This document shows positions 1,503 to 64,000 of a stretch of DNA of 64,000 nucleotides, piece after piece. Where the stretch lies: NCBI GenBank assembly GCA_021789915.1, contig JAJYIV010000002.1, positions 613 through 64,612 on the forward strand. The letters run 5' to 3'. Positions within the stretch are counted from its first letter, which is position 1; each line of letters opens with the position of its first letter. Below the pieces are notes generated by a model. That model was given only the letters and a program-made list of their open reading frames with translations. It did not search any database and was not told the origin of the DNA. Source of the DNA: a bacterium (GTDB lineage Bacteria; Patescibacteriota; Patescibacteriia; UBA9934; GWF2-40-263). The position numbers and the translations under genes are program-made.

Positions 1503-1510
1503 GGCGCGAA

Positions 1511-1565
1511 CCCCTCCGCCTGCCAAAAAGGAAGCCAGCAGGCATCCTCCCCTTGGCAGGGGAGG
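1511..1565. repeat. GC-rich double-hairpin repeat, intergenic copy
   Basis: CCCCTCCGCCTGCC..GCCAGCAGGC..CCTCCCCTTGGCAGGGGAGG. It is the reverse complement of the copies at 15583 and 63803. Confidence 0.85.
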
Positions 1566-1586
1566 TTCTGCCGCGGACACTCTCTG

Positions 1587-10885: not shown

Positions 10886-10892
10886 AGCGGTA

Positions 10893-11280: not shown

Positions 11281-11321
11281 ATTGGTTCGCATGGTTGGCG
11301 TCAAATACGCGAGACGCTCGT

Positions 11322-11353
11322 GCCTGATGGCTGATGGCTGACGGCTGACGGCC
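11322..11353. repeat. Heptamer array (GCTGAYG units)
   Basis: GCCTGATGGCTGATGGCTGACGGCTGACGGCC. TGA recurs every 7 nt. Confidence 0.9.
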
Positions 11354-14482: not shown

Positions 14483-14761
14483 TTACTTCGTTTCGACGCG
14501 GGCGAAGGTGCGCGTCTGCAGCTTGCCGGCGAAATTCGGCATGCGCTTCTTGGCGAACTTCACGATGCCGTCGACGGCCGCATACAGCGTGTCGTCGCCG
14601 CCTTGGCGCATGTTGGCGCCGGGATGGATCTTGGTGCCGCGCTGGCGCACCACGATCTGGCCGGCCTTGGTGACCTGTCCGTCGGCAATCTTCACGCCCA
14701 GGCGCTGACCATGGGAATCGCGGCCAAGGGTTGTGGAACCTGTCGCTTTTTTGTGAGCCAT
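14483..14761 (-). CDS. rpmA: 50S ribosomal protein L27
   Basis: [24 protein letters not shown]... is the canonical L27 sequence. Confidence 0.96.
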
Positions 14762-14769
14762 AAAGGAAA

Positions 14770-14800
14770 GCTTTTAGCCATTAGCCTTTAGCCATGAGCC
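14770..14800. repeat. Heptamer array (TTAGCCA units)
   Basis: GCTTTTAGCCATTAGCCTTTAGCCATGAGCC. TAG at offsets 6, 13 and 20 on plus; TAA at 11, 18 and 25 on minus. Confidence 0.9.
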
Positions 14801-14885: not shown

Positions 14886-16211
14886 TTAGAGCCTGTTCAT
14901 CCGGCAGACGAAGCTCTTCAAATACGCCGCCTCGGGGAAATACACGGACAACGGATGATCCGGGCTCTGACGCACGACCTCGAGCACCTGCAGGTCGACG
15001 CCCGCCTGCACCGACGCGCGGCGCAGCAGGAAGACCAAGTCCTCCTCCGGCAGGAAATGCGAACAGCTGGACGTGATGAAGATGCCGCCGTCCTTCACGA
15101 GCTTGAGCGCGGCGCGGTTCAGGAAATGATAGGCCTTCTTCCCTTCCTCGGCGTCCTTCATCGACTTGATGAGCGCCGGCGGATCCATAACGACGACGTC
15201 GAAAGCGCCGGCAACCCCCTCAGACTCCCCCTTGGCAAGGGGGAGATGGTGCGGGTTGGCGAGCCACTGGAAGACGTCCGCTTTCTCCGTCGCGCAGACC
15301 TCGTCGGACAAGCCGGCCGCCGCCGCCTGCGCGCGCAGCGATGCCAGCGCTTCCTCGGATCCGTCGACGTTCAGGACGGATTTCGCCCCGCCGGCGAAAG
15401 CGGCGAAGGACGTGGCACCGGTGTATGAAAAGAGATTCAGAACCGTCTTCCCTTGCGCGAGCGCGGCGACCCGGTCGCGCAGGTCCTTCTGGTCGAGGAA
15501 GAATCCCGTCTTTTGTCCGTGAAGAGGATCGGCGACGCAACGCCGGCCGTGCTCGAGAAATTCGACTTGACCCAATGCGCGTCCTCCCCTTTCCAAGGGG
15601 AGGCTGCCTGCTGGCCGCTTTTCAGCAGGCGGAGGTGTTGCCGGCGTGTGAATTCTGACGACCGCCTCCAGGTTCTCCTCGCGCCGGCTCGGCATGTCGC
15701 TGCGCTCGACGATCGCGCGCGGCTTGAACGTCTCTTCCAGCGCGGCGACGACGTCGTCACGCAGCGCGTCGAGACCGGCGGTTGCGATCTGGCATACGAG
15801 CACGTCGCCGTAGCGGTCGACGACCAAGCCCGGAATCCCGTCGGACTCGCCGAACACGCAGCGGTAGCCGGTCGTGAACTTCTCCCCCTTTTCAAGGGGG
15901 AGACTCTGCTCCAGAGGGGGTCGAGGGCCGTATCCCATCAAAACCCGTTTCTGGTGCGCATCCGCGATCTTGGCCGCCAGCCAGGCGCGGTCGATGACGG
16001 CCTCTTTGAACGCAAACACGCGCACGGCGATGGACGAGCTGGCGGAGTACGTCCCCGTGCCGATGATGCGCCCCTGGCGGTCCGCGACGTGCACGAGGGC
16101 GCCATGCTCGGGTTTCTTCTGACCGTCGGCCAGCGCGCGCGAAAAAATCCACGGATGGCGGAAGCCGACATTGGCCTCCTTCCCTTCTTTGAGCTTCAGG
16201 ACGGGGTACAT
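14886..16211 (-). CDS. Class I SAM-dependent rRNA methyltransferase (RlmI/RlmK-like, PUA plus MTase)
   Basis: Start MYPVLKLKEGKE..FRHPWIF. VLNLFSYTG and VVMDPP motifs. The long 706-aa ORF prefix is R-rich shadow sequence. Confidence 0.75.
   Translation of the reverse strand: MYPVLKLKEGKEANVGFRHPWIFSRALADGQKKPEHGALVHVADRQGRIIGTGTYSASSSIAVRVFAFKEAVIDRAWLAAKIADAHQKRVLMGYGPRPPLEQSLPLEKGEKFTTGYRCVFGESDGIPGLVVDRYGDVLVCQIATAGLDALRDDVVAALEETFKPRAIVERSDMPSRREENLEAVVRIHTPATPPPAEKRPAGSLPLERGGRALGQVEFLEHGRRCVADPLHGQKTGFFLDQKDLRDRVAALAQGKTVLNLFSYTGATSFAAFAGGAKSVLNVDGSEEALASLRAQAAAAGLSDEVCATEKADVFQWLANPHHLPLAKGESEGVAGAFDVVVMDPPALIKSMKDAEEGKKAYHFLNRAALKLVKDGGIFITSSCSHFLPEEDLVFLLRRASVQAGVDLQVLEVVRQSPDHPLSVYFPEAAYLKSFVCRMNRL
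15225..15245. repeat. GC-rich hairpin repeat, in-frame within a CDS
   Basis: CTCCCCCTTGGCAAGGGGGAG, translated as PLAKGE. Confidence 0.85.
15583..15636. repeat. GC-rich double-hairpin repeat, in-frame within a CDS
   Basis: CCTCCCCTTTCCAAGGGGAGGCTGCCTGCTGGCCGCTTTTCAGCAGGCGGAGG. About 50/55 identical to 63803-63857. Confidence 0.9.
15881..15925. repeat. GC-rich hairpin repeat, in-frame within a CDS
   Basis: TCTCCCCCTTTTCAAGGGGGAGA.., translated as SLPLEKGEKF. Confidence 0.85.
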
Positions 16212-19051: not shown

Positions 19052-19477
19052 TTACGACGCCAGCCCGAGCTTTGCCTCGACGACCTGCAAACGCCCCTCG
19101 AAGCGATCCATCCGCAAGGTCGGCGCGACCAGCTCCTGCTCGATCGTCAGCTGCAGCCGCGCCACCTGGTCGCTCACGGCAAGGACTTCCTGACGAACGT
19201 CTTGAAGATCCTCCTTTGTCGCGAAACGGTCGAAATCGTCTTTCGTGGCAAAGTTCTGCAGATCGTCTTTCGTGGCAAAGTTCTGCAGATCGTCTTTCGT
19301 GGCAAAGTTCTGCAGATCGTCTTTCGTGGCAAAACGGTCGAAATCGGCCTTCATTGCCACATTCTCCTTTACGAAACCGATGAATTCGTGCATTTCCGAC
19401 GTTAAACCTTCGACCTTCCGTTCAAGGCCATCGAACTTCTGCGCCAGCTGATTTGTCGTCAGGTGTTCCTCACTCAT
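19052..19477 (-). CDS. Coiled-coil protein with tandem FATKDDLQN repeats (DUF1640-like pattern)
   Basis: 141 aa. Five 9-aa repeats flanked by heptad-like helices. Confidence 0.7.
   Translation of the reverse strand: MSEEHLTTNQLAQKFDGLERKVEGLTSEMHEFIGFVKENVAMKADFDRFATKDDLQNFATKDDLQNFATKDDLQNFATKDDFDRFATKEDLQDVRQEVLAVSDQVARLQLTIEQELVAPTLRMDRFEGRLQVVEAKLGLAS
19208..19345. repeat. 27-bp tandem repeat (3 perfect and 2 degenerate units) inside a CDS
   Basis: ATCGTCTTTCGTGGCAAAGTTCTGCAG x3 at 19235-19315, with diverged flanking units. Confidence 0.9.
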
Positions 19478-20253: not shown

Positions 20254-21864
20254 CTATTTCGCGACCGCCTTCAGGAACGCCCTGAACAGCGGATGCGGCT
20301 TCAGGGGCGAAGACTGGAACTCGGGATGGAATTGCACGCCGACGAAAAACGGATGATCCTTCAGCTCGATGATCTCCACGAGCTGACCGTCCGGAGACGT
20401 GCCGGCGACCACCAGCCCCGCCTTCGTCAGCGTCTCGCGGTACGCGTTGTTGAACTCGTAGCGGTGGCGGTGGCGTTCGCGGATCGCCGCCGTCCCGTAG
20501 GCGTGGCGGCTCACCGTCCCGGGCTTCAGCGCGCAGTCCCAGCTGCCCAGGCGCATCGTCGCGCCGTATTCGCGGTTCAACAGCTTTTTTTCCTGATCAG
20601 GCATGATGTGGACGACGGCGTGCGGCGCCTGCGGATCGATTTCCGTCGTATGCGCGCCCTTCAGTTCGCACGCGTCGCGGGCGAATTCGACGGCGGCCAG
20701 CTGCATGCCGTAGCAGAGGCCGAAGTACGGAACTTTTTTCTCCCGCGCGTAACGGATCGCCGCGATCACGCCTTCGATGCCGCGCGAACCGAAGCCGCCC
20801 GGCACCAGGACGCCGTCATAGCCCGCAAGGATTTTCTCCGCTCCGTGCTTTTCGATGTCCGCCGCGTCGATCCACGTGATCGCCGGCTTGCGGCTGATGG
20901 CCCACGCGGCGTGCTTCACCGCTTCGATGACGGAGATGTACACGTCGGAAAGCATGAAATCGCCGACGGCGAAATACTTGCCGACGATGGCGATCTTCAC
21001 GTCCCTCTTTGCGCGCCGGATCGCGTCGACGACGTCGCGCCACGGCTTCAAATCGGCGCGCTTCGGCTTGAGGCCGAGCCGCGCGAGCAGCCGCTGCGCG
21101 AAGCGCTGGTCTTCCAGGATGAGCGGCACCTCGTAGATCGATCCGCAATCCGGGTTGCTGATGACGTCCTCCTTGGCGACGTTGCAGAACAGCGCGATGC
21201 GCTCCTTGCGGCGGCCGTCCATCGCCTGCGACGAGCGGCCGACGACGAAATCCGGCTCGATGCCCATGCCGTTCAGCATGCGGACGCTCTGCTGCACCGG
21301 CTTCGTCTTCATCTCGCCCAGCGCGCCGGGAATCGGCAGGTACGCGACATGCACGTGCGCGACGTTCTTCGGCTCGCGGCGGCCGAGCAGGCGCGCCGCC
21401 TCGAAGAAGATGCCGTTCTGGTACTCGCCGACGGTGCCGCCCAGCTCGACGACGCAGATGTCGGCGCCCTGCCCGCCCAGCTTGAAGCGGCGGATGATCT
21501 CGTCGGTGACGTGCGGAATCGCCTCGACATCTTCGCCTTCGTAGGCAAACGCGCGCTCGCGGCGCAGCACTTCCGCGTACACCTGGCCCGTCGTCGCGTA
21601 CTGCGCGCGATGCAGCGGCCGGCCGATGAAGCGCTCGTAGTTGCCCAGGTCCTGGTCGGTTTCCAACCCGTCTTCCGTGACGAACACTTCCCCGTGTTCC
21701 GAAGGGCGTATGGTGCCGGCGTCCTGGTTCAGGTACATGTCCACCTTCATCGGCGCGACGCGGTAGCCGCGCGCTTCCAAGAGCGCCGACAACGACGCGG
21801 CGGTGATGCCTTTGCCGAGGCCGGAGATGACGCCGCCGGAGACGAACACGTACTTGGTGGGCAT
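20254..21864 (-). CDS. pyrG: CTP synthase
   Basis: MPTKYVFVSGGVISGLGKGI.., with a GATase domain containing GLCYGMQ. Confidence 0.97.
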   Translation of the reverse strand: MPTKYVFVSGGVISGLGKGITAASLSALLEARGYRVAPMKVDMYLNQDAGTIRPSEHGEVFVTEDGLETDQDLGNYERFIGRPLHRAQYATTGQVYAEVLRRERAFAYEGEDVEAIPHVTDEIIRRFKLGGQGADICVVELGGTVGEYQNGIFFEAARLLGRREPKNVAHVHVAYLPIPGALGEMKTKPVQQSVRMLNGMGIEPDFVVGRSSQAMDGRRKERIALFCNVAKEDVISNPDCGSIYEVPLILEDQRFAQRLLARLGLKPKRADLKPWRDVVDAIRRAKRDVKIAIVGKYFAVGDFMLSDVYISVIEAVKHAAWAISRKPAITWIDAADIEKHGAEKILAGYDGVLVPGGFGSRGIEGVIAAIRYAREKKVPYFGLCYGMQLAAVEFARDACELKGAHTTEIDPQAPHAVVHIMPDQEKKLLNREYGATMRLGSWDCALKPGTVSRHAYGTAAIRERHRHRYEFNNAYRETLTKAGLVVAGTSPDGQLVEIIELKDHPFFVGVQFHPEFQSSPLKPHPLFRAFLKAVAK

Positions 21865-21872
21865 AGGGGGAA

Positions 21873-21914
21873 GCGGTTAGCCATTAGCTGTTAGCCGTTA
21901 GCTTCTAACTGTTG
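21873..21914. repeat. Heptamer array (TTAGCYN units)
   Basis: GCGGTTAGCCATTAGCTGTTAGCCGTTAGCTTCTAACTGTTG, directly upstream of the pyrG start. Confidence 0.9.
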
Positions 21915-22484: not shown

Positions 22485-22652
22485 GACATCTGCGTGTTCG
22501 CCGGTCTTCCCGCCTTCTGTACATCCGAGAAGGACGGCATGGTCGTCACCCTCCCCTACCCGTTAGCGAACGGTCGGGAGAATTCTGTCAGCTTCCGACT
22601 CCGCGGGAAGACAACGGTCCTCGCCGCGCCGCACATCGTCTACGTCCACTGA
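22485..22652 (+). pseudogene. 3' fragment of a paralog of the 24824..25207 gene
   Basis: DICVFAGLPAFCTSEKDG..APHIVYVH aligns with KACVFGGLPAICETSKRG..APHIIYVP. No N-terminal part or start is present. Confidence 0.45.
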
Positions 22653-22706
22653 CGCACGCGCGTCCGCGCGGTTCGTGAGCCCGACGCTCACGGCCGCCGC
22701 GGGCGC
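22626..22706 (+). repeat. 81-bp direct repeat, copy A
   Basis: 78/81 identical to 25181-25261. Covers the last 8 codons, the stop and hairpins. Confidence 0.9.
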
Positions 22707-24469: not shown

Positions 24470-24545
24470 TGGTGGACCTGATGGGAGTCGAACCCACATC
24501 TTATGGTGCTAACTCAGGCGAGGTTACCGTTTCCTCCACAGGCCC
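24470..24545 (-). ncRNA. tRNA-like RNA (tRNA-Ala-like, degenerate anticodon stem)
   Basis: GGGCCTG-TG-GAGG-AAACGGTAA-CCTC..GTGGG-TTCGACT-CCCAT-CAGGTCC-ACCA. G3:U70 is present. The anticodon arm CCTGA/GTTAGCA/CCATA does not pair. Confidence 0.5.
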
Positions 24546-24823: not shown

Positions 24824-25207
24824 GTGATCCACAGAATCGTGATTGGAACAGTCGTCGCCGTCGGTGTTCTCTACCTCGCAAAGCCCATCGTCGGGTACTT
24901 CCACGAACAGGACGTGAAGGTACGCGCCGAGACCGACGTCGTGTGCGCGCACGTGACCCCGGCCAACTGGGGCGGCGAGGACAGCGCAACCTGCCGTAAG
25001 CTCGTGGCCAAGTTCATCAACATCGACCTCAAGCCGAAGGCCTGCGTCTTCGGCGGACTCCCGGCCATTTGCGAGACGTCGAAGAGGGGCACCGATGTCG
25101 CCGTGTTCCTCAAACGAAAAGACGGGCCGCTCCAGTACAGCCTGCTGCCCATCATGACCAAGGAACAGCTGGCGAACTCGGCGCCGCACATCATCTACGT
25201 CCCCTGA
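24824..25207 (+). CDS. Small membrane-anchored or secreted protein (127 aa)
   Basis: GTG start 7 nt after AAGGAG. N-terminal TM segment IVIGTVVAVGVLYL. Four Cys residues. Confidence 0.6.
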   Translation: MIHRIVIGTVVAVGVLYLAKPIVGYFHEQDVKVRAETDVVCAHVTPANWGGEDSATCRKLVAKFINIDLKPKACVFGGLPAICETSKRGTDVAVFLKRKDGPLQYSLLPIMTKEQLANSAPHIIYVP

Positions 25208-25261
25208 CGCACGCGCGTCCGCGCGGTTCGTGAGCCCAACGCTCACGGCCGCCGCGGGCGC
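25181..25261 (+). repeat. 81-bp direct repeat, copy B
   Basis: 78/81 identical to 22626-22706. Confidence 0.9.
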
Positions 25262-25604
25262 TTCTTTATTTTGAATCGAGAGATCCCTTCGGCGCCATGC
25301 TCCGTCCGCCGTATCATTCAGTCCCGCGGCACCATTGCCCCGCGGACGGAACGGGCCCGGCACAAGCGAGCCGTTCAGAGCCGCATCGGCCCGGCTCGCG
25401 ATGACGGAGACCGTCCGGCCAAGCGGGGCCTGGTGCCAAGATCTTTCTTTCTCCGGTTTCTTGGGATCGGCCAAGAAACCGGACCGCCGGAGGCTTCCGG
25501 CTTAAGAGGGTCTCGTGATCCCTCGCCCCGCCTGCATGCAGGCGGGGTCGGGACGACACAAGAAGGATGGCGCGCGTCGCCGGAGGCCTCCGGCGAAAAA
25601 AGAT

Positions 25605-26861
25605 TTATTCATACCGCAGCGCCTCGACGGGATCCAGGCGCGCGGCGTTGCGCGCGGGCAGGACGCCGAACACGATGCCGATGGCGGCGGAGACGCCGAC
25701 GCCGAGCAGGATGGCGGAAGGCGGGACGGCGAAGGTCCATGCCAACTGGTTGGCGCGCGCCACGGCGGCCACGATCCACCCGAGCAGGGCGCCCCAGGCG
25801 ATGCCCAAAGAGCCGCCGAGCACGGTCAGCAGCACGGCTTCCAGCAGGAACTCGCGCAGGATGGCGCCGCGCGTGGCACCGACGGCCTTCTTGAGGCCGA
25901 TCTCCGCCGTCCGTTCCGTCACGACGACGTACATGATGTTCATGATGCCCACCCCGCCCACCAGCAGCGAGATGGCGGCGATCGCGATCAGCAGGGCCGT
26001 GATGCCACTGAAGATCACGTTGAACGTATCAAGCGCCTGCGTCTGCGTCTGCACCTCGAAATCGTCCTTCGCCGGATCCGTGATCCGGTGATTGCGCTCC
26101 AGCGTGCTCCGGATTTCCGCCGCCGTCGCGTCGCCGAGCGACGTGTCGCGCATCTGCACGATGCCGACCGAGAGATAGTCGATGCCGAGCATCTTCTTCT
26201 GCGCCGTGGCGAGCGGGATGTAGGCGGAGCTGTCCGCCGTTCCGCCGAACGCCAGCCCGCCCTGCGGGGCGTACACGCCGATCACCTGGAAATTCAGCGT
26301 GCCCAGACGCACCAGCCGGCCGACCGGCTCGTTCTGGCCGAAGAGATCCTTGGCCAGGTCGCTGCCGAGGATGATGACCTGCGCCGCGCCCGCATCCTCC
26401 GCGGGCGTGTAGAAACGCCCTTCCTGCAGCGTGTGCTGGTCGATGCGGAAGCGCTCGGCCCCGGCGCCGTAGTAGATGACGCTTTTCTGATGGTTGCCCT
26501 CGCTGGCCTCCGCCTGGCCCGTCACCATGCCGTAGGCGTCCACGACATTCGGCAAACGGCGGATATCGTCCAAATCGCGCGTCTTGAACGTGTTGATGAC
26601 GATGCCCGTCACGCCGCCGCCCACGCCGGCCGAGAACTTCTGCGCGCGGCTCTTCGTCGTCGGCGGCACGCGCGTGCTGACGAACAGCGTGTTGCTGCCC
26701 AGGGCGTTCACCTGCGACGTGACGAGGCTGCGGAAGCCCGCGCCCGCGGACAGCACCAAGATCACCGTCGAAATGCCGATGACGATGCCGAGGGTCGTCA
26801 AGACCGTCCGGACGGGATTGGACGCGAGGCCGCGGAGGGATTGGCGAAAGGCGGGGAACAT
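25605..26861 (-). CDS. ABC transporter permease (MacB/FtsX-like)
   Basis: 418 aa. N-terminal TM segment, a large extracytoplasmic domain and a C-terminal FtsX-type 3-TM bundle. Confidence 0.85.
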   Translation of the reverse strand: MFPAFRQSLRGLASNPVRTVLTTLGIVIGISTVILVLSAGAGFRSLVTSQVNALGSNTLFVSTRVPPTTKSRAQKFSAGVGGGVTGIVINTFKTRDLDDIRRLPNVVDAYGMVTGQAEASEGNHQKSVIYYGAGAERFRIDQHTLQEGRFYTPAEDAGAAQVIILGSDLAKDLFGQNEPVGRLVRLGTLNFQVIGVYAPQGGLAFGGTADSSAYIPLATAQKKMLGIDYLSVGIVQMRDTSLGDATAAEIRSTLERNHRITDPAKDDFEVQTQTQALDTFNVIFSGITALLIAIAAISLLVGGVGIMNIMYVVVTERTAEIGLKKAVGATRGAILREFLLEAVLLTVLGGSLGIAWGALLGWIVAAVARANQLAWTFAVPPSAILLGVGVSAAIGIVFGVLPARNAARLDPVEALRYE

Positions 26862-26865
26862 AGAT

Positions 26866-26896
26866 GGCTGTAGGCTTTTAGCTTTTAGCTGTTAGC
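26866..26896. repeat. Heptamer array, left arm of an imperfect inverted pair
   Basis: GGCTGTAGGCTTTTAGCTTTTAGCTGTTAGC. Confidence 0.85.
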
Positions 26897-51349: not shown

Positions 51350-53398
51350 TCACCGCACGCGCGTCCGGAACAGCTCGTCCGGCCACTTGGCGAAATACTT
51401 GAGGAAGCTGATCGAGTGCGCGCGGGCCATCCGGTTGACGAGCAGCGTGCGCAGCAGGCTGCCCTGGCGCACCGATCCCTTGCCGTAGGCATGCTGCAGC
51501 GCCGCATCGGCCACATAGTACACCGGCCGGTGCATCGCCCACGAGCGGCGGCACAGATCCACGTCCTCGAAGTACATCCAGAAGCGCTCGTCGAAGCCGC
51601 CCAGCGCGCGCCAGTGCTCCATCGGCAGGAACAGCGCGGAGCCCTGCGCCCAATCCACCATGCGCGTTTCGCCTGGCGGCGTGTCGCGCATCAGGAAACG
51701 ATGGAGGTAGCGGCGGCCGAAGGCCGTGCCGCCGAGCGTCGTGCGCTGGACGAGCGGCAGCGGCCACGACGGGAAGCGGCGCACGGTTTCCTGCGCCTGT
51801 CCGTCGGGATAGACGATCTTGGGCGCGGCGATGCCGGCGCGCGGATGCGCGCGCATGAACGCGACGAGCTTGGCGAAGAGCCGATCGTCGACGAGTTCCG
51901 TATCCGGGTTCAGCACGAAGAGGAACTCGGCGTCGAGCTCGGCGGCGCCGCGGTTCACGGAGCTGCCGTAGCCGGCGTCCCAGTTGCGCTGGACGACCAC
52001 GCCGTCGGGAATCGCGTCCCACAGCACGGCCGCGGCATCGTACGCCGTCGACGCGTTGTCCACGACGACGACGCCGACGCGCAGGCCGGACGCCTTGCGC
52101 GCGCGATCGAGCGAACGCAGACACGCGGCGCTCAAATCGTCGTGCGAGACGATGACGACGGCGATGTCGAGGTAAGTAGCTGGCGGCTGGGGGCTGGCGG
52201 CTGGGGGAGAAAACGGGAGCGGGGCCTGCGCGCGCGCCGCGTCCGCGGGCGACGGCACGGCGCGAACCGCGCCGAACCGCGCGGCGTACGCGCGCCGCTT
52301 CGTGATCAGCTCATGCCGATGCTCCCACGTTTCCCGCCACGCCTCGGTGCACACGCGCGGCCGCATGACGAGCCAATATGCCGCCTTCGCCGCCTCATAC
52401 GGAAGCACGGCCCATGCGCGCGCCGGCGCCGAACGGAACTCCCCCTGGCTCCCTCTTGAAAAGAGGGGGAAGTGCATCGCCAGCGTCCAAAGATGGTTGC
52501 GGTACGAGTGGAACACCGGCCGCCAGGTTTGCGCGGTGCGGCCGATTCCCCCCCTGCCTGCCTCGCATACCCCCCGCCTGCCAAAATGCGGCCAGCAGGC
52601 AGCCCCCCTTGGCAGGGGGGCAATCCTGGCCGTGCCGAAGCTGCGGCGATGGTACGCGACGGCGTCGGACACGACGCCGGAGGCGAAGCCCGCGCGGCGC
52701 AATCTCCACGCAAGCTCGACGTCTTCCTTGTACGAGACGAACGACGGGTCAAACAAATTCCCGTCCAACGACGCCGCCTCTACCGCCGCACGGCGATACA
52801 TCGGCAGGCAGCCCGACACCCCGAACGCCTCGTGCACGCCCTCATGCAGCTGCGCCGTCGAAACACGCTCCCCTGCTCCGATGTCGCGCACGGCGCCCGT
52901 TGCCGACATCGCCAAGCCGAAACTGTCGATCACGTCCGTGCGCCCGCCGGACCCCTCTGCCCAGCTGAGCTGGGCCGTCCCCCCTTGGCAGGGGGGGACG
53001 ACACACGCCGCCCGATCGAAATCCCATCGATACACGCGCCCGGCGACGGACCCGAGCCGCGCGTCCGCGTCCAGCGCGGCGACGAGCCGCTCGAGATACG
53101 CCGGTTCCAGGATCGCATCGTCGTTGTGCAGCATCACGTACGCCGCCTGATGCTTGGAGAACAGCAGGTTATGCGCGCCGGCAAAGTCGACGTTGCGCGG
53201 CCCGACGTCCACGTACACGGCGCGGTCGCCGAGTTCCCGCGCGAACGCGCGCACCGCCTCGGCCTGCACGGGATCCGACGCATTGTCCGTCACGTACAGC
53301 GTCCAATCGCGGAACGTCTGCGCGCGCAGGGACGCCAAAATATGCGGCAGGTACCGCGCGCCGTCGTAGCAGGAAAGTTGGATGGCGAGTTTGGACAT
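51350..53398 (-). CDS. Fused double GT2 glycosyltransferase (682 aa)
   Basis: Two GT2 modules (LSCYDGARYL..HNDDA and VIVSHDD..LNPDT..YFEDVDLC). Carries two repeat inserts. Confidence 0.8.
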   Translation of the reverse strand: MSKLAIQLSCYDGARYLPHILASLRAQTFRDWTLYVTDNASDPVQAEAVRAFARELGDRAVYVDVGPRNVDFAGAHNLLFSKHQAAYVMLHNDDAILEPAYLERLVAALDADARLGSVAGRVYRWDFDRAACVVPPCQGGTAQLSWAEGSGGRTDVIDSFGLAMSATGAVRDIGAGERVSTAQLHEGVHEAFGVSGCLPMYRRAAVEAASLDGNLFDPSFVSYKEDVELAWRLRRAGFASGVVSDAVAYHRRSFGTARIAPLPRGAACWPHFGRRGVCEAGRGGIGRTAQTWRPVFHSYRNHLWTLAMHFPLFSRGSQGEFRSAPARAWAVLPYEAAKAAYWLVMRPRVCTEAWRETWEHRHELITKRRAYAARFGAVRAVPSPADAARAQAPLPFSPPAASPQPPATYLDIAVVIVSHDDLSAACLRSLDRARKASGLRVGVVVVDNASTAYDAAAVLWDAIPDGVVVQRNWDAGYGSSVNRGAAELDAEFLFVLNPDTELVDDRLFAKLVAFMRAHPRAGIAAPKIVYPDGQAQETVRRFPSWPLPLVQRTTLGGTAFGRRYLHRFLMRDTPPGETRMVDWAQGSALFLPMEHWRALGGFDERFWMYFEDVDLCRRSWAMHRPVYYVADAALQHAYGKGSVRQGSLLRTLLVNRMARAHSISFLKYFAKWPDELFRTRVR
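52548..52621. repeat. GC-rich double-hairpin repeat (G6 subfamily), in-frame within a CDS
   Basis: ..CCCCCCGCCTGCCAAAATGCGGCCAGCAGGCAGCCCCCCTTGGCAGGGGGG. Reverse complement of the 60812 copy. Confidence 0.9.
52959..52999. repeat. GC-rich hairpins, in-frame within a CDS
   Basis: GCCCAGCTGAGCTGGGC plus GTCCCCCCTTGGCAGGGGGGGAC, translated as PPCQGGTAQLSWA. Confidence 0.85.
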
Positions 53399-53411
53399 AG
53401 ATCGCTGGCAA

Positions 53412-53530
53412 CCCCTCCGCCTGCCGATGGTCGGCCAGCAGGCAGCCTCCCCTTGGGGGGGCGCGTTTTTCCGCGTCCCCTCTTTTCCAAGAGCCTGTCC
53501 TGAGCGAGCGGAGCGAGTCGAAGGAAGGGG
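53412..53530. repeat. Composite repeat filling an intergenic gap
   Basis: Double-hairpin copy (53412-53461) plus a CCTGTCCTGAGCGAGCGGAGCGAGTCGAAGGAAGGGG module. Confidence 0.85.
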
Positions 53531-55319: not shown

Positions 55320-55757
55320 TCATTCCAGCGGCCAGGTTTCCAGCGGCAGGTTCACGCTTTCGTCCGGCTCCCAGGCGACGGTCGCCCCGTTGCAGACGAT
55401 CGCGGCGCCTTCGCCGGCGCAGCGCCACGCATAGGCCACGCCCGGCGGGATCGTCAGCAGGAAGGACTTCCCTTCCGCCGGCGCCAGCTCGTACGTCTCC
55501 GCCGCGCCCCTGGCCGGCGAACCGTCGCGCTCGTCGCGGATCCAGAAGCGCATCGCGCCGGAGACGACCGCCATGTTGGACGTGGAACGGGCGTGCCGTT
55601 TCCATCCTTTCGTCACGCCCGGGTTCACGGTCGAAAAATACACCTCGCCGAAGCGCGTGAACGGCGCGCGCCCCTCGCGCAGGAAATGCATCACGCTTCC
55701 CCGCTCGTCGCGGACGATCTTGAGGGGCGTCAGCAGGACGCCGGGAATGGAGGACAT
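55320..55757 (-). CDS. Sugar-nucleotide 3,5-epimerase-like cupin (RmlC family)
   Basis: 145 aa. DERGSVMHFLRE..GEVYFSTVNPG..KGWKRH pattern. Confidence 0.7.
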   Translation of the reverse strand: MSSIPGVLLTPLKIVRDERGSVMHFLREGRAPFTRFGEVYFSTVNPGVTKGWKRHARSTSNMAVVSGAMRFWIRDERDGSPARGAAETYELAPAEGKSFLLTIPPGVAYAWRCAGEGAAIVCNGATVAWEPDESVNLPLETWPLE

Positions 55758-55761
55758 AGAA

Positions 55762-55788
55762 GTTCGCCGTTAGCCGTTAGCCGTTAGG
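55762..55788. repeat. Heptamer array (GCCGTTA units)
   Basis: GTTCGCCGTTAGCCGTTAGCCGTTAGG. Confidence 0.9.
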
Positions 55789-55810
55789 AAAAAGGACGCG
55801 CAGCCCCCCA

Positions 55811-55835
55811 AAGCCAAAGGCTAATGGCTAATGGC
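55811..55835. repeat. Heptamer array (GGCTAAT units), inverted partner
   Basis: AAGCCAAAGGCTAATGGCTAATGGC. Confidence 0.9.
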
Positions 55836-55840
55836 TTTTT

Positions 55841-58354: not shown

Positions 58355-58370
58355 AGGTTTCCTATATCGC

Positions 58371-58419
58371 GTGATCCTTCGACTTCGCTCGCCTTCGGCT
58401 CGCTGCGCTCAGGATGACA
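58371..58419. repeat. Palindromic element (GTCATCCTGAGCG type, reverse orientation)
   Basis: GTGATCCTTCGACTTCGCTCGCCTTCGGCTCGCTGCGCTCAGGATGAC. Supplies the stop of the 58409..58624 ORF. Confidence 0.8.
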
Positions 58420-58624
58420 CAGGGACGGGCTCTTCGTGAAGAGCCCCCCACCACGAGGCAAAGACGATCGCGGCGAGCAAAAACCAATGCACGGAAAAAT
58501 AATCCGAGACGAAGCCGGCGCGGATCGCGTCGCAGGCCCAGAAGACCGCGTATGAAACGATCGACGCGTAAAACCCGGTGCGGGCGACGGCTTGCTGGGC
58601 AGGGCTATCAAGGTGCAAGGTCAT
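58409..58624 (-). CDS. Small membrane protein (71 aa)
   Basis: ATGA overlap with the upstream stop. Two hydrophobic segments. Confidence 0.5.
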   Translation of the reverse strand: MTLHLDSPAQQAVARTGFYASIVSYAVFWACDAIRAGFVSDYFSVHWFLLAAIVFASWWGALHEEPVPVSS

Positions 58625-59460
58625 ACGTGCAGGAGCGTTTTCAGCGTGTCGGCAAGATTCGGCCGCGTCATCGTCACGTCCATGCGGTGGATGACGAAGG
58701 AAATTGGGGGCAGGGGGGGATTCGCCACGCCGGGCACCGACAGGACGATCTTCCATGCGCCGTTCTGCCGCAGGGCCGTCTTCGGGTTCACGGTGAACGT
58801 CGCAACCGTCCAGCCGTCCACCGTCCGCGGCGTCGCGTAGCGCGCGATCACGAAATCGATTCCCGCCGCGTCCAGATCCAAGCTCGGCAGCAGGCGCGAC
58901 GCGCCGGCGGGCAGCAAGCCGTCGTAGCGGTACTGCGCCATGCGGCTCCCCGCCGGCGGATGCGCGAGGAAATCCGCGATCGACGCGTACGTCGGCGTGC
59001 GCTGCAGCAGCACGAGGCCGTCCGCATCCAGCCGATGCCACGGCGAATCGTCGATCAGGGTGTTTTCCAGCGGTTGCAAATCATACTGCTCGTCCGGTCC
59101 TGGCTTCGTCAATGCGCCCGCCTCGACGATCGGCACGCCGGCATCCTTGAACCACACGTTGACCGTGACCGCGTCGAAGCGGCGCAGCGGATGCACGAAC
59201 GTGTATACCGGATCGCCGACGACGGCCTGCGCCGCAAGATTTCCCCCCTGCCAAGGGGGGAACGCCCGGCCCGGCTGGGCAAGGGGGGTCGGTGCCTGAA
59301 CGCGCTGGTCCGGCCGCAGCGGATCGACGAAGGCGCTGCGTTCTCCCGGCTCCCAGGAGACGCGGAACGTTCCCGTCGGCACGAGGAATTGCCAGCCCAA
59401 CCAGCCGAAGATCGCGATCGGCACGGCGATGATCAGGATTTGGAACGGACGTGGGGACAT
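58621..59460 (-). CDS. Hypothetical membrane-anchored protein (279 aa)
   Basis: N-terminal TM segment ILIIAVPIAIFGWLGW. Carries a repeat insert, FPPWQGGN. Confidence 0.6.
   Translation of the reverse strand: MSPRPFQILIIAVPIAIFGWLGWQFLVPTGTFRVSWEPGERSAFVDPLRPDQRVQAPTPLAQPGRAFPPWQGGNLAAQAVVGDPVYTFVHPLRRFDAVTVNVWFKDAGVPIVEAGALTKPGPDEQYDLQPLENTLIDDSPWHRLDADGLVLLQRTPTYASIADFLAHPPAGSRMAQYRYDGLLPAGASRLLPSLDLDAAGIDFVIARYATPRTVDGWTVATFTVNPKTALRQNGAWKIVLSVPGVANPPLPPISFVIHRMDVTMTRPNLADTLKTLLHV
59241..59262. repeat. GC-rich hairpin repeat, in-frame within a CDS
   Basis: TTCCCCCCTGCCAAGGGGGGAA. Confidence 0.85.
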
Positions 59461-59465
59461 GGGAA

Positions 59466-59495
59466 GCGTTTAGCCATTAGCCGTTAGCCTTTAGC
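59466..59495. repeat. Heptamer array (TTAGCCN units)
   Basis: GCGTTTAGCCATTAGCCGTTAGCCTTTAGC. Confidence 0.9.
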
Positions 59496-59506
59496 ATGTG
59501 TCTCTC

Positions 59507-59530
59507 GCCTGACGGCTGACGGCTAATGGC
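59507..59530. repeat. Heptamer array (GGCTGAC/GGCTAAT), inverted partner
   Basis: GCCTGACGGCTGACGGCTAATGGC. Contains the stop codon of the 59523..61409 ORF. Confidence 0.9.
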
Positions 59531-61409
59531 TTGCAATGACATACAGCGTCTCGATCCCGAACGTCTGCACCGGCACGAACGTAAGGCCGTCGGCCTTCAG
59601 TTTGTCCGTGTTGAGATAGTTCAGATCTTGCGCCGGCAGCGTGATGCCGAAGTAGTACGTCGGCGCGTGCGCGACGAGCGCGGGCAGCAGCGCATAGGTC
59701 CGCGGATCGCGCAGCGGATAGCGCACGGCGCGATCCGGAAAGAAGATTTTGTCGTCGCGGTCAACGACGATGACGGCGTCCGCCGGCGTCAGGCGCATCA
59801 CGGCGTCATGCACGGCGCGCTCTTGCGCCAACACCTGCGCCTCAGCGAACAAGCCGTCCTCCGGGGTCAGGAACGCCGTGCGGAACCCGAGCGCCGCCCA
59901 GGCGACCCAGCCGACGACGAGCACGACGGAGCCGAGGCGCTTCGCACGCGCGGCAAGCTCGTCGAGCGCCACGGCCGCGAGCGGCACCCAGGCGACGAAG
60001 ATCGGCAGCCAGTACCGCACGTGCGAATTGCCGACGGTGATCTGCGTCGGATCCGGATTGTCCGTGAACGTCCAGCTGCCGTACATCAGCACGAGCCAGA
60101 CCGTCACGACGAGGGCGACGAGGAGATAGGGCCAAAAGCAGCTGGCAGCTGGCAGCTGGCAGCTGGGGGAAGAACCGCGACGGCGCTTCGACAAGACGCG
60201 GACGGCCAACAAGATGATGCCGAGCGCCGCCAGGACGAACTCCCACCAGAACATCCTCAAGCCATAGGCGACGAACTGCCGCCAGGCCAGGCGCGGATGG
60301 ATGCCGAAGGGAAAGACGAAGGAGAGCGCTCGCTCCATGGCGCGCCGCCACGCGGGCATGGAGGCTCCGGGGGCGAGCGCTGCCGCAGACGTGGATGATT
60401 CCCCCCCTGCCAAGCCTGTCCTGAGCGAAGTCGAAGGAGGGGGGCTGCCGGCTGACTCCATGACGGCCGGCGGGGGGGTATGCGCCACGGCTATGGCCGG
60501 CACGGAGACGAGATCGCCGCCGGACGCGTCCGCCGCCGCCTGGTAGCCCGTCGTCCACGGCGAACCGTACAGACGCTGGTTCAAAAACGGCATGGGCGAG
60601 AGGACGACGAGGAACCCAAGCACGCCGGCGGCGACGAAGCGGCGATCCAGCTGCCGCCATTGCCAGGCGAAGGCGGCCGCCGCGGGAACGACCAACCACA
60701 CGGCTTCCGACGCGCGGATGAAGAGCGCGAGCCCCAGCAGCGCGCCCGCGGCGAAACCGTCGAGCGCATGGTGCCAGCGCCCCGCGGATGCACGGGAAGC
60801 GCCCGCGAGGATTGCCCCCCTGCCAAGGGGGGCTGCCTGCTGGCCGTCATGCGGCAGGCGGGGGGTATGCGAGGTGGACGTGGTGGAAGCGTTTTGAAAC
60901 GGCCGCGCGAGGAAAAACCAGAAGGCGAAGCCCACGCATGCGAGGAACGGCACATTGGGCATGAGCGAGCGGGCCGTGTAGAACCACCACGCCGGCTGCA
61001 GCGCGAGCAGCGCGCCCGCGATCCATCCCGCGCGCCGGCCGAACAGGCGCCCGAAGACGGCCGCCCACGCGAGCACGCCGAGCGCGGAGAGCAGGATCGG
61101 CACGTACGGGATCGCCCGGGCGCCGAACGCCTTCGCCGCGACGCCGAGCGCGAGCGGCAAGCCGAGGAAGCTCGCGGGAACGAGCGCGCCGCGCGTCGCA
61201 AGCACGCTGCGCGGATGCAGCGCGTCGCCGAGCGCGGCGGCGAGCGGCTCGGGCGCGGACAGCGTCGACGTCGCCGCGTACGCCCCGGCGAAGAACGACA
61301 CGGCCGTTTCGTCCGGCGACACGAAGATGGCTCCCGACGCGCGCAGCGCGAGGGAACCGAGGACGAGCAGCAGGCAGGAAGAGGCGAGCAGCCAGCGGAC
61401 GGGGTTCAT
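59523..61409 (-). CDS. Polytopic membrane protein, probable ArnT/PMT-like glycosyltransferase
   Basis: 628 aa with more than 10 TM segments and a soluble C-terminal domain. Sits in a glycosylation cluster. Two repeat inserts. Confidence 0.5.
   Translation of the reverse strand: MNPVRWLLASSCLLLVLGSLALRASGAIFVSPDETAVSFFAGAYAATSTLSAPEPLAAALGDALHPRSVLATRGALVPASFLGLPLALGVAAKAFGARAIPYVPILLSALGVLAWAAVFGRLFGRRAGWIAGALLALQPAWWFYTARSLMPNVPFLACVGFAFWFFLARPFQNASTTSTSHTPRLPHDGQQAAPLGRGAILAGASRASAGRWHHALDGFAAGALLGLALFIRASEAVWLVVPAAAAFAWQWRQLDRRFVAAGVLGFLVVLSPMPFLNQRLYGSPWTTGYQAAADASGGDLVSVPAIAVAHTPPPAVMESAGSPPPSTSLRTGLAGGESSTSAAALAPGASMPAWRRAMERALSFVFPFGIHPRLAWRQFVAYGLRMFWWEFVLAALGIILLAVRVLSKRRRGSSPSCQLPAASCFWPYLLVALVVTVWLVLMYGSWTFTDNPDPTQITVGNSHVRYWLPIFVAWVPLAAVALDELAARAKRLGSVVLVVGWVAWAALGFRTAFLTPEDGLFAEAQVLAQERAVHDAVMRLTPADAVIVVDRDDKIFFPDRAVRYPLRDPRTYALLPALVAHAPTYYFGITLPAQDLNYLNTDKLKADGLTFVPVQTFGIETLYVIASH
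60399..60485. repeat. Composite GC-rich repeat, in-frame within a CDS
   Basis: TTCCCCCCCTGCCAAG plus CCTGTCCTGAGCGAAGTCGAAGGAGGGGGG plus CTGCCGGC..GCCGGCGGGGGGGTATGCG. Confidence 0.85.
60812..60874. repeat. GC-rich double-hairpin repeat (G6 subfamily), in-frame within a CDS
   Basis: TTGCCCCCCTGCCAAGGGGGGCTGCCTGCTGGCCGTCATGCGGCAGGCGGGGGGTATGCGAGG. Confidence 0.9.
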
Positions 61410-61430
61410 ACCATCACTCCACCACTTTTC

Positions 61431-62012
61431 TCACAACCCATACGTGAACAAGCTGATCACGGCCAGCATGAGGGCGATCACGAGGATGGCGACGGACCAG
61501 GCGAACAGCATGGCGTTGCCCGCCCACACGGACACCAGCAGCAAACTGACGCCGAGCGCCTGCGCGAACATCTTGGCCTTGCCGAAGACGTTCGCGCGCA
61601 TGTGGCGGCCGTGCCGTTTGCCCCAATAGCCGCCCAGCGCGATCAGCACGTCCACGCCGAGGATGGACAGCGCGAAGCGCATGCCGACATAACGGGCCAC
61701 GATGAGCAGGATGACGGAGCCGATGAGAAGCTTGTCGGCGACGGGATCGTAAAACGACCCCCAGTCCGTGATCTGGCGGCGGACGCGCGCGAGGGAACCG
61801 TCCAGCGCATCCGTCAATGCCGCAAAGACGAAGAGCGGCACGCCCCAAGCCCATCGTCCGGCGACAAGCAGCGCCAGGACGATCGGCGTCAGCGCGAAAC
61901 GCAGCCCCGTGACCATGTTCGGCGTCACCGAGTCCGGAATGAACGGCAAGATCGTGCGCGCCAGCACCCGGTCGTGCGGATACAGGGCGCGCGGGTCTCG
62001 TTGCAATGGCAT
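61431..62012 (-). CDS. CDP-alcohol phosphatidyltransferase family protein
   Basis: Start MPLQRDP. Motif DALDGSLAR-x8-G-x3-DPVADK. Confidence 0.85.
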   Translation of the reverse strand: MPLQRDPRALYPHDRVLARTILPFIPDSVTPNMVTGLRFALTPIVLALLVAGRWAWGVPLFVFAALTDALDGSLARVRRQITDWGSFYDPVADKLLIGSVILLIVARYVGMRFALSILGVDVLIALGGYWGKRHGRHMRANVFGKAKMFAQALGVSLLLVSVWAGNAMLFAWSVAILVIALMLAVISLFTYGL

Positions 62013-62040
62013 ACGACGGACGTGATACACTCTTTGCGCT

Positions 62041-64000
62041 ATGCCTCGCGGACGGTTTGTCGTTAAATCTACCACCATTTGGACGATTTTTCCATTCGTT
62101 TTTGCCGTGAACGCGCTTTGGGTGAAAAACGCGGCCCTGGGCCTCGTACTGCTTGCGGCGTTTTTGGCGCTGCTCGGCTCGGCCGTCGGGCGCGCGGCGG
62201 CGCCCGAGGAGGGACGCGCGGTGCGCTGGTGGCTGGGCGTCTGGCAGCTGCTGTCCGCCCTCATCATTGTCGCCGCAGCGATGTATTATGCCATGCCGTT
62301 TTCGCCGGCGGCGGCCGATGTGCTCGTCATCCTCGCCCTCGCCGCTGCCTGGACGATCCGCGGGCGCGCGAAGACGCCGCCGCCTCGCCGGGCGGACGCT
62401 CCGGCGCAGCGCGGATGGCCTTTGGCCGCCGGGCTCGCCGCGCTCGCGGGTTTCGCCTCCACGCTGTTCCTGCTGCGCGCCTCCGCGACCGTCCGCGCGG
62501 TCGCGTCGCCGTGGGACGTCGTGTCCCCGTGGACATTCGTCGCGTTCGGCGCGGGTGTCTTGGCGCTGTCCGCTCTCTGGTTCCAGGGCCGCGGACGCGC
62601 GTCCGTTCCTCCGCCGGGATCGCCCCCCTGCCAAGGGGGGCTGCCTGCTGGCCTTGCCCCCCTGCCAAGGCCTGTCCTGAGCGAAGTCGAAGGAGGGGCT
62701 GCCCGCTGTCCGCACGGCGCCGGGCGGGGGGTTCCGTCGGCAGGCGTGGGGTTCATCGTCCCGCTCACGATTCTGGCGCTGTTCGTCTTTCTCAGCGTGA
62801 ACCTCGCCGTCTTCCCGCTGGGCGCCGGCTTCGACGCCTTCATCCATCGCGCGACGGAAGCGCACATCGCCGCGACCGGCAGCATCACGCCCAAGCCGCT
62901 TTACTACGCCGGCCAGTACGCGCTCGTCGTCCTCCTGCACCACGCCTTCGCGCTGCCCGTGGACGCCGTCGATCTCTGGCTGCTGCCGCTGCTCGCCGCG
63001 TTCCTGCTCCCGTCGGCGTGGACGGATGCGGCCGACCGTCTTCTTCCCGAGCGCCGCTGGGCGCCGTTCACGCTCGCGCTCCTGTTCCTGCTGCCGCTCG
63101 GCGCGTTCGCCACGACGACGCCGCAAGGTCTGGCGGATCTTTGGATTCTGCTGCTCGTGCTGGCAAGCGTGCCGCTGCTGGCGGCGTCTCCGCTTGACGG
63201 CCCGGCGCGGCGGCGGCGCCTGTGGCTGCTCGCGCTCTCCGCGCTGGCGACCGCGGCCATTCATCCGCTCGCCGGACTGCCCGCGCTTGCCTTCGTCGCG
63301 TATCTTGCCGCCGCGCGCACGCGATGGTTGCGCCGCGCGATCATCGCCGTCGGCGCGCTGCTGCTGCCCGTCAGCTTCCTCGTGGAGAACCGCGGCCTGG
63401 GCGGACGCGGGCTGGATCTTGCCGGGCTCTGGACGAAGCTCGCCGCGCTGTTCCCCGCCCCGCCCGCGCTGGGCGCGCCGTACCATCCGGCGCTGGATTT
63501 CGCCGCGGCGCTCGGCTGGGCGGCGGGATGGATCGTCCTGCTGCTGGCCATCCTCGGCTGGCGGCGCGCGCCGAACCGCCTGCGCTGGGCGGCGGCGGCG
63601 ATGGCGGGCCTGTTGCTGGCGGATTACGTGTTACTCGGCACCATCGTGGATTTTTCGTACCTGATCGACTATGAACGCGCGAGCTATGCCGCGCGCCTGC
63701 TGCCGCTCGCGCTGTTCTTTCTCGCGCCGCTCGCCATGGTCGGGTTGGGACGGATCCGGCAGCGGCTGGATGGATTCCCCCGCGCACGGGAGTCTGCCTC
63801 GTCCTCCCCTTTCCAAGGGGAGGCTGCCTGCTGGCCGCTTTCTGGCAGGCGGAGGGGTTGCCGGCGCAGCGAACAGGAAGGAAGGAAAGCGCCGCGCGCG
63901 GTGCGCTGGTTCGCCGTCGCGCTCGCCGCGGGAGCCGTGCTCGGCGCGTGGTATGCCGCCTATCCGCGCGACGACGCCTATCTCAAAGGCCACGGCTACA
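62041..64000 (+). CDS. Large polytopic membrane protein, 3'-partial (absent from the ORF track)
   Basis: I read all 653 codons from the ATG at 62041 to the window end and found no stop. There is an in-frame TGA at 62023. Many L/A/W-rich TM segments. Confidence 0.7.
   Translation, partial: MPRGRFVVKSTTIWTIFPFVFAVNALWVKNAALGLVLLAAFLALLGSAVGRAAAPEEGRAVRWWLGVWQLLSALIIVAAAMYYAMPFSPAAADVLVILALAAAWTIRGRAKTPPPRRADAPAQRGWPLAAGLAALAGFASTLFLLRASATVRAVASPWDVVSPWTFVAFGAGVLALSALWFQGRGRASVPPPGSPPCQGGLPAGLAPLPRPVLSEVEGGAARCPHGAGRGVPSAGVGFIVPLTILALFVFLSVNLAVFPLGAGFDAFIHRATEAHIAATGSITPKPLYYAGQYALVVLLHHAFALPVDAVDLWLLPLLAAFLLPSAWTDAADRLLPERRWAPFTLALLFLLPLGAFATTTPQGLADLWILLLVLASVPLLAASPLDGPARRRRLWLLALSALATAAIHPLAGLPALAFVAYLAAARTRWLRRAIIAVGALLLPVSFLVENRGLGGRGLDLAGLWTKLAALFPAPPALGAPYHPALDFAAALGWAAGWIVLLLAILGWRRAPNRLRWAAAAMAGLLLADYVLLGTIVDFSYLIDYERASYAARLLPLALFFLAPLAMVGLGRIRQRLDGFPRARESASSSPFQGEAACWPLSGRRRGCRRSEQEGRKAPRAVRWFAVALAAGAVLGAWYAAYPRDDAYLKGHGY
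62621..62740. repeat. Composite GC-rich repeat, in-frame within a CDS
   Basis: CCCCCCTGCCAAGGGGGGCTGCCTGCTGGCC plus CCCCCCTGCCAAGG plus CCTGTCCTGAGCGAAGTCGAAGGAGGGG.., translated as PPCQGGLPAGLAPLPRPVLSEVEGG. Confidence 0.9.
63803..63857. repeat. GC-rich double-hairpin repeat, in-frame within a CDS
   Basis: CCTCCCCTTTCCAAGGGGAGGCTGCCTGCTGGCCGCTTTCTGGCAGGCGGAGGGG, translated as SSPFQGEAACWPLSGRRRG. Confidence 0.9.

Follow-up and report, generated by a model that had tools for sequence, protein, structure and literature searches.

How can one short DNA palindrome come to lie inside several genes of the same bacterium, in different frames and orientations, and break none of them? The question is raised by the end of a 64,000-nucleotide (nt) stretch of DNA (contig JAJYIV010000002.1 of assembly GCA_021789915.1, positions 613 to 64,612; hereafter the window) from an uncultured Candidatus Uhrbacteria genome, where five copies of a GC-rich repeat fall in three adjacent genes for envelope and glycosylation proteins. 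These copies belong to one family of palindromic DNA repeats, short and GC-rich, which are dispersed, differ by structure-conserving substitutions and are inserted into one another. We consider it probable that the repeat is a selfish, non-autonomous element analogous to the Rickettsia palindromic elements (RPEs), and a new family in a new phylum. The window has ~65% GC and is densely coding (coding fraction 0.84 by the map of open reading frames, ORFs), and homologues of its proteins belong nearly all to Candidatus Uhrbacteria or to other Patescibacteria.

All five copies that an earlier note on this DNA had placed in the three genes are present, all on the + strand (Table 1). As that note had also stated, none of the host ORFs, 58621..59460(-), 59523..61409(-) and 62041..>64000(+), is broken: they have coding-type composition (GC content at third codon positions 0.83-0.87) and many homologues, and the last of them encodes a 790-residue protein on the full contig, recorded at 100% identity on two contigs, one of 57.7 kb (in GCA_027328745.1) and one of 65.4 kb. 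The host region is indeed a glycosylation/envelope cluster, which extends from 47 to 74 kb and encodes RmlD, several GT2 glycosyltransferases, an NTP-transferase, a dehydratase, an ArnT-like GT-C glycosyltransferase, a CDP-alcohol phosphatidyltransferase, GT4 glycosyltransferases and a subtilisin-like peptidase. What had been taken for a single copy at 62621 is repeat sequence, resolved here into three nested elements, and the copy reported at 59241 represents a divergent subfamily whose nearest relative lies at 52940-53004.

An nhmmer profile of the element, made from eight copies, gives 11 matches at E < 0.01 in the window, and the core of the first hairpin (CCCCCCTGCCAAGGGGGG, <=3 mismatches) occurs there 10 times against 0.11 in shuffled sequence. 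The window holds 12 sites, or 13 elements, among them an extra short copy at 15876-15925; 10 of the sites are coding and fall in five genes, in agreement with the count made before. The census also takes in an NCBI contig (L082; GCA_027328745.1, 57.7 kb) that runs 10.4 kb past the window and a second contig of this genome (L083, 21 kb), and thus covers ~96 kb in all (the window, ~10 kb of L082 and the 21 kb of L083); a further assembly of the same genome, ENA ERZ27233565, surfaced together with QueA. The profile finds two more copies in the next 10 kb of L082, one in a GT4 gene and one in a peptidase S8 gene, and L083 carries two full and two short copies, all within QueA, plus one short intergenic hairpin. 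The total is n=20 elements, which occur on at least two contigs and in either orientation, and 17 of them are intragenic, spread over eight genes.

These numbers do not bear out a preference for coding sequence, which the earlier note had suspected: random placement at the coding fraction of the window would yield ~10 of 12 coding sites (P = 0.70). It had called for a genome-wide census; over the ~96 kb covered here, the census returns no coding enrichment, and neither does it return a mostly intergenic distribution. The element shows no gene preference, and what contrasts with ordinary repetitive extragenic palindromic (REP) sequences is the lack of depletion from genes. Specificity for envelope genes fails as well, as the rRNA methyltransferase RlmI has three copies and QueA, on the other contig, has four. 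The two long-range similarities that it had cited, one of them as a sign of recent spread, are real: 63797-63866 and 15577-15646 are 93-94% identical (94% over 67 nt, 63800-63866 against 15580-15646), and 60805-60874 is 91-95% identical to the reverse complement of 52561-52630 (91% over 70 nt). Pairwise identities range over 75-95%, and the nearest relative of most copies is found in another gene or on the other contig, at 91-95% identity, which fits dispersal of which a part is fairly recent.

The element is ~58-70 nt long (individual units span 45-91 nt), with a core of ~66 nt, a whole number of codons. Hairpin 1 comprises a 6-7-nt C-run, a 4-7-nt loop (e.g. TGCCAA or TTTCCAA) and a matching G-run; hairpin 2 is formed by CTGCCTGCTGG, a ~7-nt loop and CGGCAGGCGG, or by a variant with compensating changes; and the third part is a G-rich tail terminating in TATGCG or TTGCCGGCG. 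In all full copies both hairpins fold, with energies of -14 to -21 kcal/mol apiece. Hairpin 1 has compensatory pairs across subfamilies (CCCCCC/GGGGGG, CCTCCCC/GGGGAGG and CTCCCCC/GGGGGAG), one stem position of hairpin 2 pairs as T:A in the majority of copies and as G:C in the copy at 60394, and the D subfamily has a different, self-complementary hairpin stem (GCCCAGCT/AGCTGGGC). MAFFT set two hairpin-1 subfamilies out of register, and the stems were therefore judged copy by copy. At least four subfamilies can be distinguished, together with short forms that lack hairpin 2; in subfamily C, the hairpin-1 loop of an A-like unit carries an insert of 25 nt, CCTGTCCTGAGCGAAGTCGAAGGAG.

Nesting is most elaborate at 62615, where an outer A unit (62615-62653) breaks off in the left arm of its hairpin 2 and resumes at 62737-62759, where the right arm, TCGGCAGGCG, is followed by the tail. 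The hairpin-2 loop of this outer copy accommodates an entire C unit (62654-62736), which itself holds the 25-mer (62671-62695) in its hairpin-1 loop; in the predicted fold, the split outer arms pair around the inner unit. Since the 25-mer interrupts hairpin 1 at an identical point in all three C copies, each located in a different gene, the C composite arose once and then kept spreading. The 25-nt insert looks like a separate, widely distributed mini-palindrome. Translated as LSEVEG or STSLRTGL, it recurs without mismatch over its 25 nt on an unrelated IMG/VR viral contig of 69% GC (L107:1237-1261), where it lies between two genes, and an Uhrbacteria contig of low GC has a closely similar variant (L074:16979-16995).

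The alignments present each intragenic copy as a lineage-specific insertion, missing from homologues wherever these were compared. In the 628-residue ArnT-like GT-C protein, both repeat segments are missing in 17 of 17 aligned homologues (523-595 residues long, except one with a C-terminal extension), with a gap of ~40 residues at the 60394 copy. Both segments of the 790-residue protein (~47-50 residues at 62615, 38 residues at 63797) are likewise missing in 12 of 12 homologues, and a 12-residue gap in 11 of 11 homologues faces the 59234 copy of the 279-residue protein. The closest syntenic relative, locus L001, has the same gene order and proteins 62-67% identical to those of the window; the segment of the 62615 nest is missing there, the gap at the 59234 copy amounts to 6 residues, and the locus has neither element copies nor comparable inserts. 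In RlmI, the copies at 15577, 15207 and 15876 correspond to gaps totalling ~20 residues, of 10 residues and of ~15 residues, respectively, in the E. coli YccW/RlmI structure 3c0k, and the QueA inserts are gaps in the T. maritima QueA structure 1vky.

The family itself was found in this genome only. The exact 24-nt core pattern has 0 matches in genome, metagenome and viral contig collections, and the nhmmer profile gives nothing significant against 1.39 Mb from 81 related Uhrbacteria loci. Queried with the six-frame translations of the element, a protein database yielded just RlmI and QueA, both from this genome; that search was evidently incomplete, since the 790-residue protein, also in the database, escaped it. 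A pattern for hairpin 2 by itself returned 23 metagenome matches; all lack hairpin 1 and the tail, and we attribute them to chance in GC-rich DNA.

Relatives of the host genes carry inserts of other kinds. The L001 orthologue of the 790-residue protein has its own 81-nt palindrome (L001:434-514; 28-nt arms, 79% complementary), in frame and adding 30 residues at a position without insert in the window protein, so that in-frame palindrome insertion takes place in a related lineage too, with an unrelated repeat. The GT-C loop at residues 415-424 contains a heptamer-repeat array in the window and a heptamer-repeat hairpin in L001 (L001:3215-3296). In the same heptamer-array loop (alignment columns about 455-485), P0003, a more distant Uhrbacteria homologue of the GT-C protein, has a 30-residue insert (…LLRRMPSRNDEGEGHGDVGDAGTR…), whose peptide resembles translations of another common bacterial repeat.

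Within genes, translation of one DNA element follows four combinations of frame and orientation, and all the peptides quoted in the earlier note recur in the translations. In sense orientation it reads PPCQGG (62615 and 52940) or PLPRGAACWP, PFQGEAACWP or LPLAKGE (52561, 63797, 62654 and 15207), and in antisense orientation TPPPA..RPAGS.PLERGG, with PPWQGG as its D variant (15577, 60394, 59234, 15876, the two copies on L082 and one of those in QueA), or TPRLP..GQQAAPLGRGA (60805 and one QueA copy). Two of the six frames are unused in this sample, for which chance or selection could account. All 17 intragenic copies keep the frame of the host and are free of stops in that frame. Of the six frames, 5-6 are open per copy, compared with 4.2 for random sequence of the same composition, and this near-absence of stops should make survival inside genes easy.

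Model and topology locate the intragenic copies in loops or linkers of the proteins. An AlphaFold model of the GT-C protein from an 18-sequence alignment (mean predicted local distance difference test score, pLDDT, 79.9; predicted template-modelling score 0.82) has pLDDT < 50 at residues 177-205 and 294-347 only, and the element copies are residues 179-202 and 308-339. When mapped onto the hydrophobic segments of the three membrane proteins, a check that the earlier note had proposed, the inserts always lie between segments and never within one, that at 59234 just past the sole N-terminal transmembrane segment of its protein. Pro, Gly, Ala, Ser or Arg make up 54% to 71% of the insert residues in these proteins. 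We infer that the inserts are translated into disordered loops rich in Pro, Gly, Ala and Arg, because excision or ribosomal bypass would need no constraint on frame or stop codons.

The copies are unevenly distributed. The 10 coding sites occupy 5 of 54 genes, against 9.0 genes expected (P = 3e-4), a stretch of 36.7 kb in the window is free of copies (P = 3.5e-4), and none was found in the widely conserved window genes (MurG, FtsW, MraY, CTP synthase, NrdD, ribosomal proteins). Copies that share a gene are mostly of different subfamilies and have their nearest relatives elsewhere, which points to repeated independent arrivals without local duplication. The pile-up of 2-4 copies per gene most likely reflects proteins that tolerate extra loops, and existing copies may draw in new ones.

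We propose that a selfish repeat of this kind inserts into a compactly coding genome and that selection would purge those insertions that shift the frame, add a stop codon or strike a structured segment, leaving copies that would be translated as disordered loops. Its spread probably needs recognition of the hairpins in single-stranded DNA, as practised by the HUH/Y1 transposases that move REPs and IS200/IS605. This is the weakest step of the mechanism; it is proposed because the stems are kept by compensation, because clear terminal inverted repeats (TIRs) and target duplications are lacking and because copies have landed in the hairpin loops of others.

Several points weigh against this account. 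No transposase, integrase, REP-associated tyrosine transposase (RAYT) or Y1/HUH enzyme was found by Pfam in ~45 of the ~54 window genes or in the precomputed Pfam annotations of L082 and L083. Alignment of the copies together with their flanks reveals neither target-site duplications nor a shared flank, and leaves the boundaries of the element short of single-base precision. Terminal inverted repeats are confined to the C-run/G-run of 6-7 bp, which pairs in an alternative fold and is inexact in the B subfamily (CCTCCCC vs GGAGGGG). Mobility is deduced from the similarity of copies and their nesting, and translation of the inserts from frame conservation only. The ~96 kb covered belong to a genome that we assume to measure ~1 Mb, and simple random insertion combined with loop tolerance does not predict the crowding in a few genes.

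Other explanations have to accommodate the same hairpins. Their stems are conserved through compensatory changes, the copy at 1503-1566 directly follows a stop codon, that at 53403-53472 lies just 5' of a start codon, and other hairpin repeats occupy intergenic regions of this genome, all of which would suit functional cis-elements (RNA stability or processing signals, attenuators, terminators or protein binding sites) instead of selfish DNA. However, ~85% of the copies are inside ORFs, in both orientations and without consistent position, and orthologous sites in all relatives are devoid of them; no T run follows the hairpins, Rfam yields only tRNAs at the gathering threshold and nothing at E <= 1 for 58-64 kb, and stem conservation is equally expected if mobility needs hairpins. 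A cis-acting function is thus improbable. We judge it less probable still that the inserts go untranslated, whether cut out of the mRNA or bypassed during translation like 'byp' of Magnusiomyces mitochondria or T4 gene 60. Hairpins as strong as -14 to -21 kcal/mol each within coding sequence would favor such a bypass, yet without constraint no more than about one insertion in three would leave the frame intact, whereas the downstream frame is kept and free of host-frame stops in 17 of 17 cases, which would be needless upon excision or skipping.

Many of the hosts are envelope or glycosylation proteins and the peptides are Pro/Gly-rich and linker-like, as would be expected if the repeat were a protein-level module, that is, a peptide motif or linker recruited by surface or glycosylation proteins. 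This is very hard to reconcile with the unrelated peptides that the same DNA yields in four frame and orientation combinations, with the intergenic copies, with a conservation that tracks base-pairing and not codons, or with hosts such as the cytoplasmic enzymes RlmI and QueA, and we give it hardly any weight. Just as little is given to assembly artefacts: the source is a short-read metagenome assembly (k141 contig name), in which repeats are a known cause of mis-joined reads, but the copies differ mutually (75-95% identity), each is in frame with conserved protein sequence on both flanks, and a differently assembled NCBI contig (57.7 kb, vs 65.4 kb for the source contig) shares 11,960 nt with the window without a mismatch.

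More credit, though well short of that accorded to an RPE-like selfish repeat, is due to the idea that the element has become adapted to life inside genes and is moved by an undescribed mechanism that targets hairpin loops. It is suggested by a sequence nearly free of stops in all frames, by the ~66-nt core of whole codons and by landings in the element's own hairpin loops; we regard it as unlikely. Were it true, the element would be a major ongoing source of new disordered loops in a Patescibacteria lineage, including those of QueA, RlmI and surface glycosylation proteins, and the Rickettsia phenomenon would extend to a second, unrelated group with reduced genomes, a pointer to a general rule.

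Table 1. Copies of the palindromic element and heptamer repeats. Positions are those of the window unless a contig is named.
Feature	Position	Strand	Context and reading
Full B-like copy	1503..1566	-	Intergenic, directly after stop codon 1500-1502
Short form (hairpin 1 and G-rich tail, without hairpin 2)	15207..15251	-	In RlmI; read as LPLAKGESEGV
Full B copy	15577..15646	+	Antisense in RlmI-like methyltransferase gene 14886..16211(-); read as PATPPPAEKRPAGSLPLERGGR
Short form	15876..15925	+	In RlmI; read as SLPLEKGEK
Full A copy	52561..52630	-	Sense in double-GT2 gene 51350..53398(-); read as IAPLPRGAACWPHFGRRGVCE
D copy	52940..53004	-	In double-GT2 gene 51350..53398(-); read as VVPPCQGGTAQLSWAEGSG; at the point where the SpsA (1h7l) alignment stops
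Full B copy	53403..53472	-	Intergenic, few nt 5' of the ATG at 53398; L082 gene call begins at the same ATG
Solitary relative of the nested 25-mer, with core GAGCGAAGTCGAAGG	58366..58408	-	Intergenic, flanked by a small ORF and by the HIT gene
D copy	59234..59299	+	Antisense in ORF 58621..59460(-); read as APTPLAQPGRAFPPWQGGNL; nhmmer E = 8e-11; both hairpins fold
Composite C copy	60394..60486	+	Antisense in ArnT-like GT-C gene 59523..61409(-); read as AHTPPPAVMESAGSPPPSTSLRTGLAGGESS; 25-nt insert in hairpin-1 loop, 60415-60439
Full A copy	60805..60874	+	Antisense in GT-C gene 59523..61409(-); read as SHTPRLPHDGQQAAPLGRGAIL
Nest of three elements (two in the element count): outer A unit, inner C unit at 62654, 25-mer	62615..62759	+	Sense in 790-residue membrane protein gene 62041..(+); nhmmer matches partial
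Full B copy	63797..63866	+	Sense in 790-residue protein gene; read as SSSPFQGEAACWPLSGRRRGCR; after the last hydrophobic segment
C copy	L082:19752		
Heptamer repeats	10883-10935		Intergenic
Heptamer repeats	11318-11352		Intergenic
Heptamer repeats	14759-14800		Intergenic
Heptamer repeats	21862-21903		Intergenic
Heptamer repeats	26856-26896		Intergenic
Heptamer repeats	55755-55836		Intergenic
Heptamer repeats	59455-59530		Intergenic
Heptamer array (GCTGGCG)n	52179-52207		Inside double-GT2 gene
Heptamer array (GCAGCTG)x4	60138-60166		Inside GT-C gene

Other repeats share this genome with the element. Tandem heptamers (GCCGTTA, GCCGTCA, TTAGCCA, CTGACGG) form long intergenic hairpins, often at gene starts or ends. 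Two 81-nt direct repeats, 22626-22706 and 25181-25261, are 96% identical and lie 2.5 kb apart, flanking two ORFs that match no Pfam family and a tRNA-Ala of low score (24470-24545) whose anticodon, AGC, is unusual; they may mark the edge of a small integrated element or stem from local duplication. The small ORF 19052..19477 contains a perfect 27-nt tandem repeat (19235-19333; 3.7 copies, 100% matches), which encodes a 9-residue repeat, and the 22-nt perfect palindrome CCCCGCCTGCATGCAGGCGGGG, present on both contigs (window 25526-25547 and L083:15744-15765), may be another small repeat family. L083 also carries a gene for a 298-residue reverse transcriptase (L083:5964-6860; RVT_1, E = 1.6e-9), with a short C-run/G-run hairpin copy (L083:5456-5500) in the 560-nt non-coding stretch downstream. 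It could belong to a diversity-generating retroelement or a retron, and no link between this gene and the repeat family was found. GC skew in the window tracks gene strand and is therefore uninformative on the direction of replication.

Among known systems, the closest are the RPEs, which PMC10969869 (citing Ogata et al. 2000 and 2002) describes as fold-compatible, ~100-150 bp long and in frame in unrelated genes. As in that description, the element considered here is a dispersed palindromic repeat of a small reduced genome, with no associated transposase known, and its in-frame copies in unrelated protein-coding genes add a peptide at loops or the surface. Unlike RPEs as described there, it is much shorter (45-91 nt vs roughly 100-150 bp), which leaves it outside their size range. 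It is built of two tandem hairpins and a G tail and used in at least four frames, in contrast to the one conserved peptide per RPE family of that account; its copies, up to four per gene, are nested in each other's hairpin loops; and its host is a member of the Patescibacteria with ~65% GC. The likeness to RPEs is one of function, and nothing seen here indicates that the two are related in sequence.

The element also recalls the REP sequences, their arrangements known as bacterial interspersed mosaic elements (BIMEs) and REPINs, which are linked to RAYTs of the Y1/HUH type: these too are short, GC-rich imperfect palindromes present in many copies without target duplications, in which the stem structure is conserved over the sequence and which cluster and serve as targets for further insertions. 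It departs from them in that ~85% of its copies are intragenic, whereas REPs are almost entirely extragenic, and in that its unit consists of two different hairpins and not of one 20-40-nt REP or an inverted doublet. An alignment of 11 copies has no conserved GT[AG]G at either end, and Pfam scans together with the L082 and L083 annotations reveal no RAYT gene in ~96 kb. Short GC-rich hairpins that invade coding sequence in a compact genome also exist in yeast mitochondria, as mobile GC clusters and 'byp' elements. Ribosomes skip byp, so that the frame need not hold, whereas every copy here keeps it, and read-through would be the simpler reading.

Miniature inverted-repeat transposable elements, or MITEs, with occasional in-frame intragenic copies are represented in bacteria by ERIC, Correia, QMITE1 of Coxiella and the Anabaena MITEs (PMC10969869, PMC5896051). 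The element resembles them as a small non-autonomous repeat with strong secondary structure that overlaps ORFs and creates in-frame fusions. MITEs, however, have TIRs and target-site duplications and usually measure 100-400 bp, while here the unit is <100 nt long with a terminal symmetry of 6-7 bp.

We found no description of such elements in Patescibacteria in the literature, and Rfam has no matching family; in-frame intragenic palindromes are still treated by a 2024 review as an unusual case, best known from Rickettsia (PMC10969869). The Uhrbacterium case suggests that they recur where a genome is small and densely coding, such that insertions nearly always hit genes, and where selection is weak. 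In practice, inserts of this kind inflate protein lengths, create spurious "novel" loops and can mislead homology annotation and structure prediction. The repeat appears to be a new family of a known kind of element, set apart from RPEs by its size and its phylum and from the REP/RAYT systems by its intragenic location and its lack of a GT[AG]G head.

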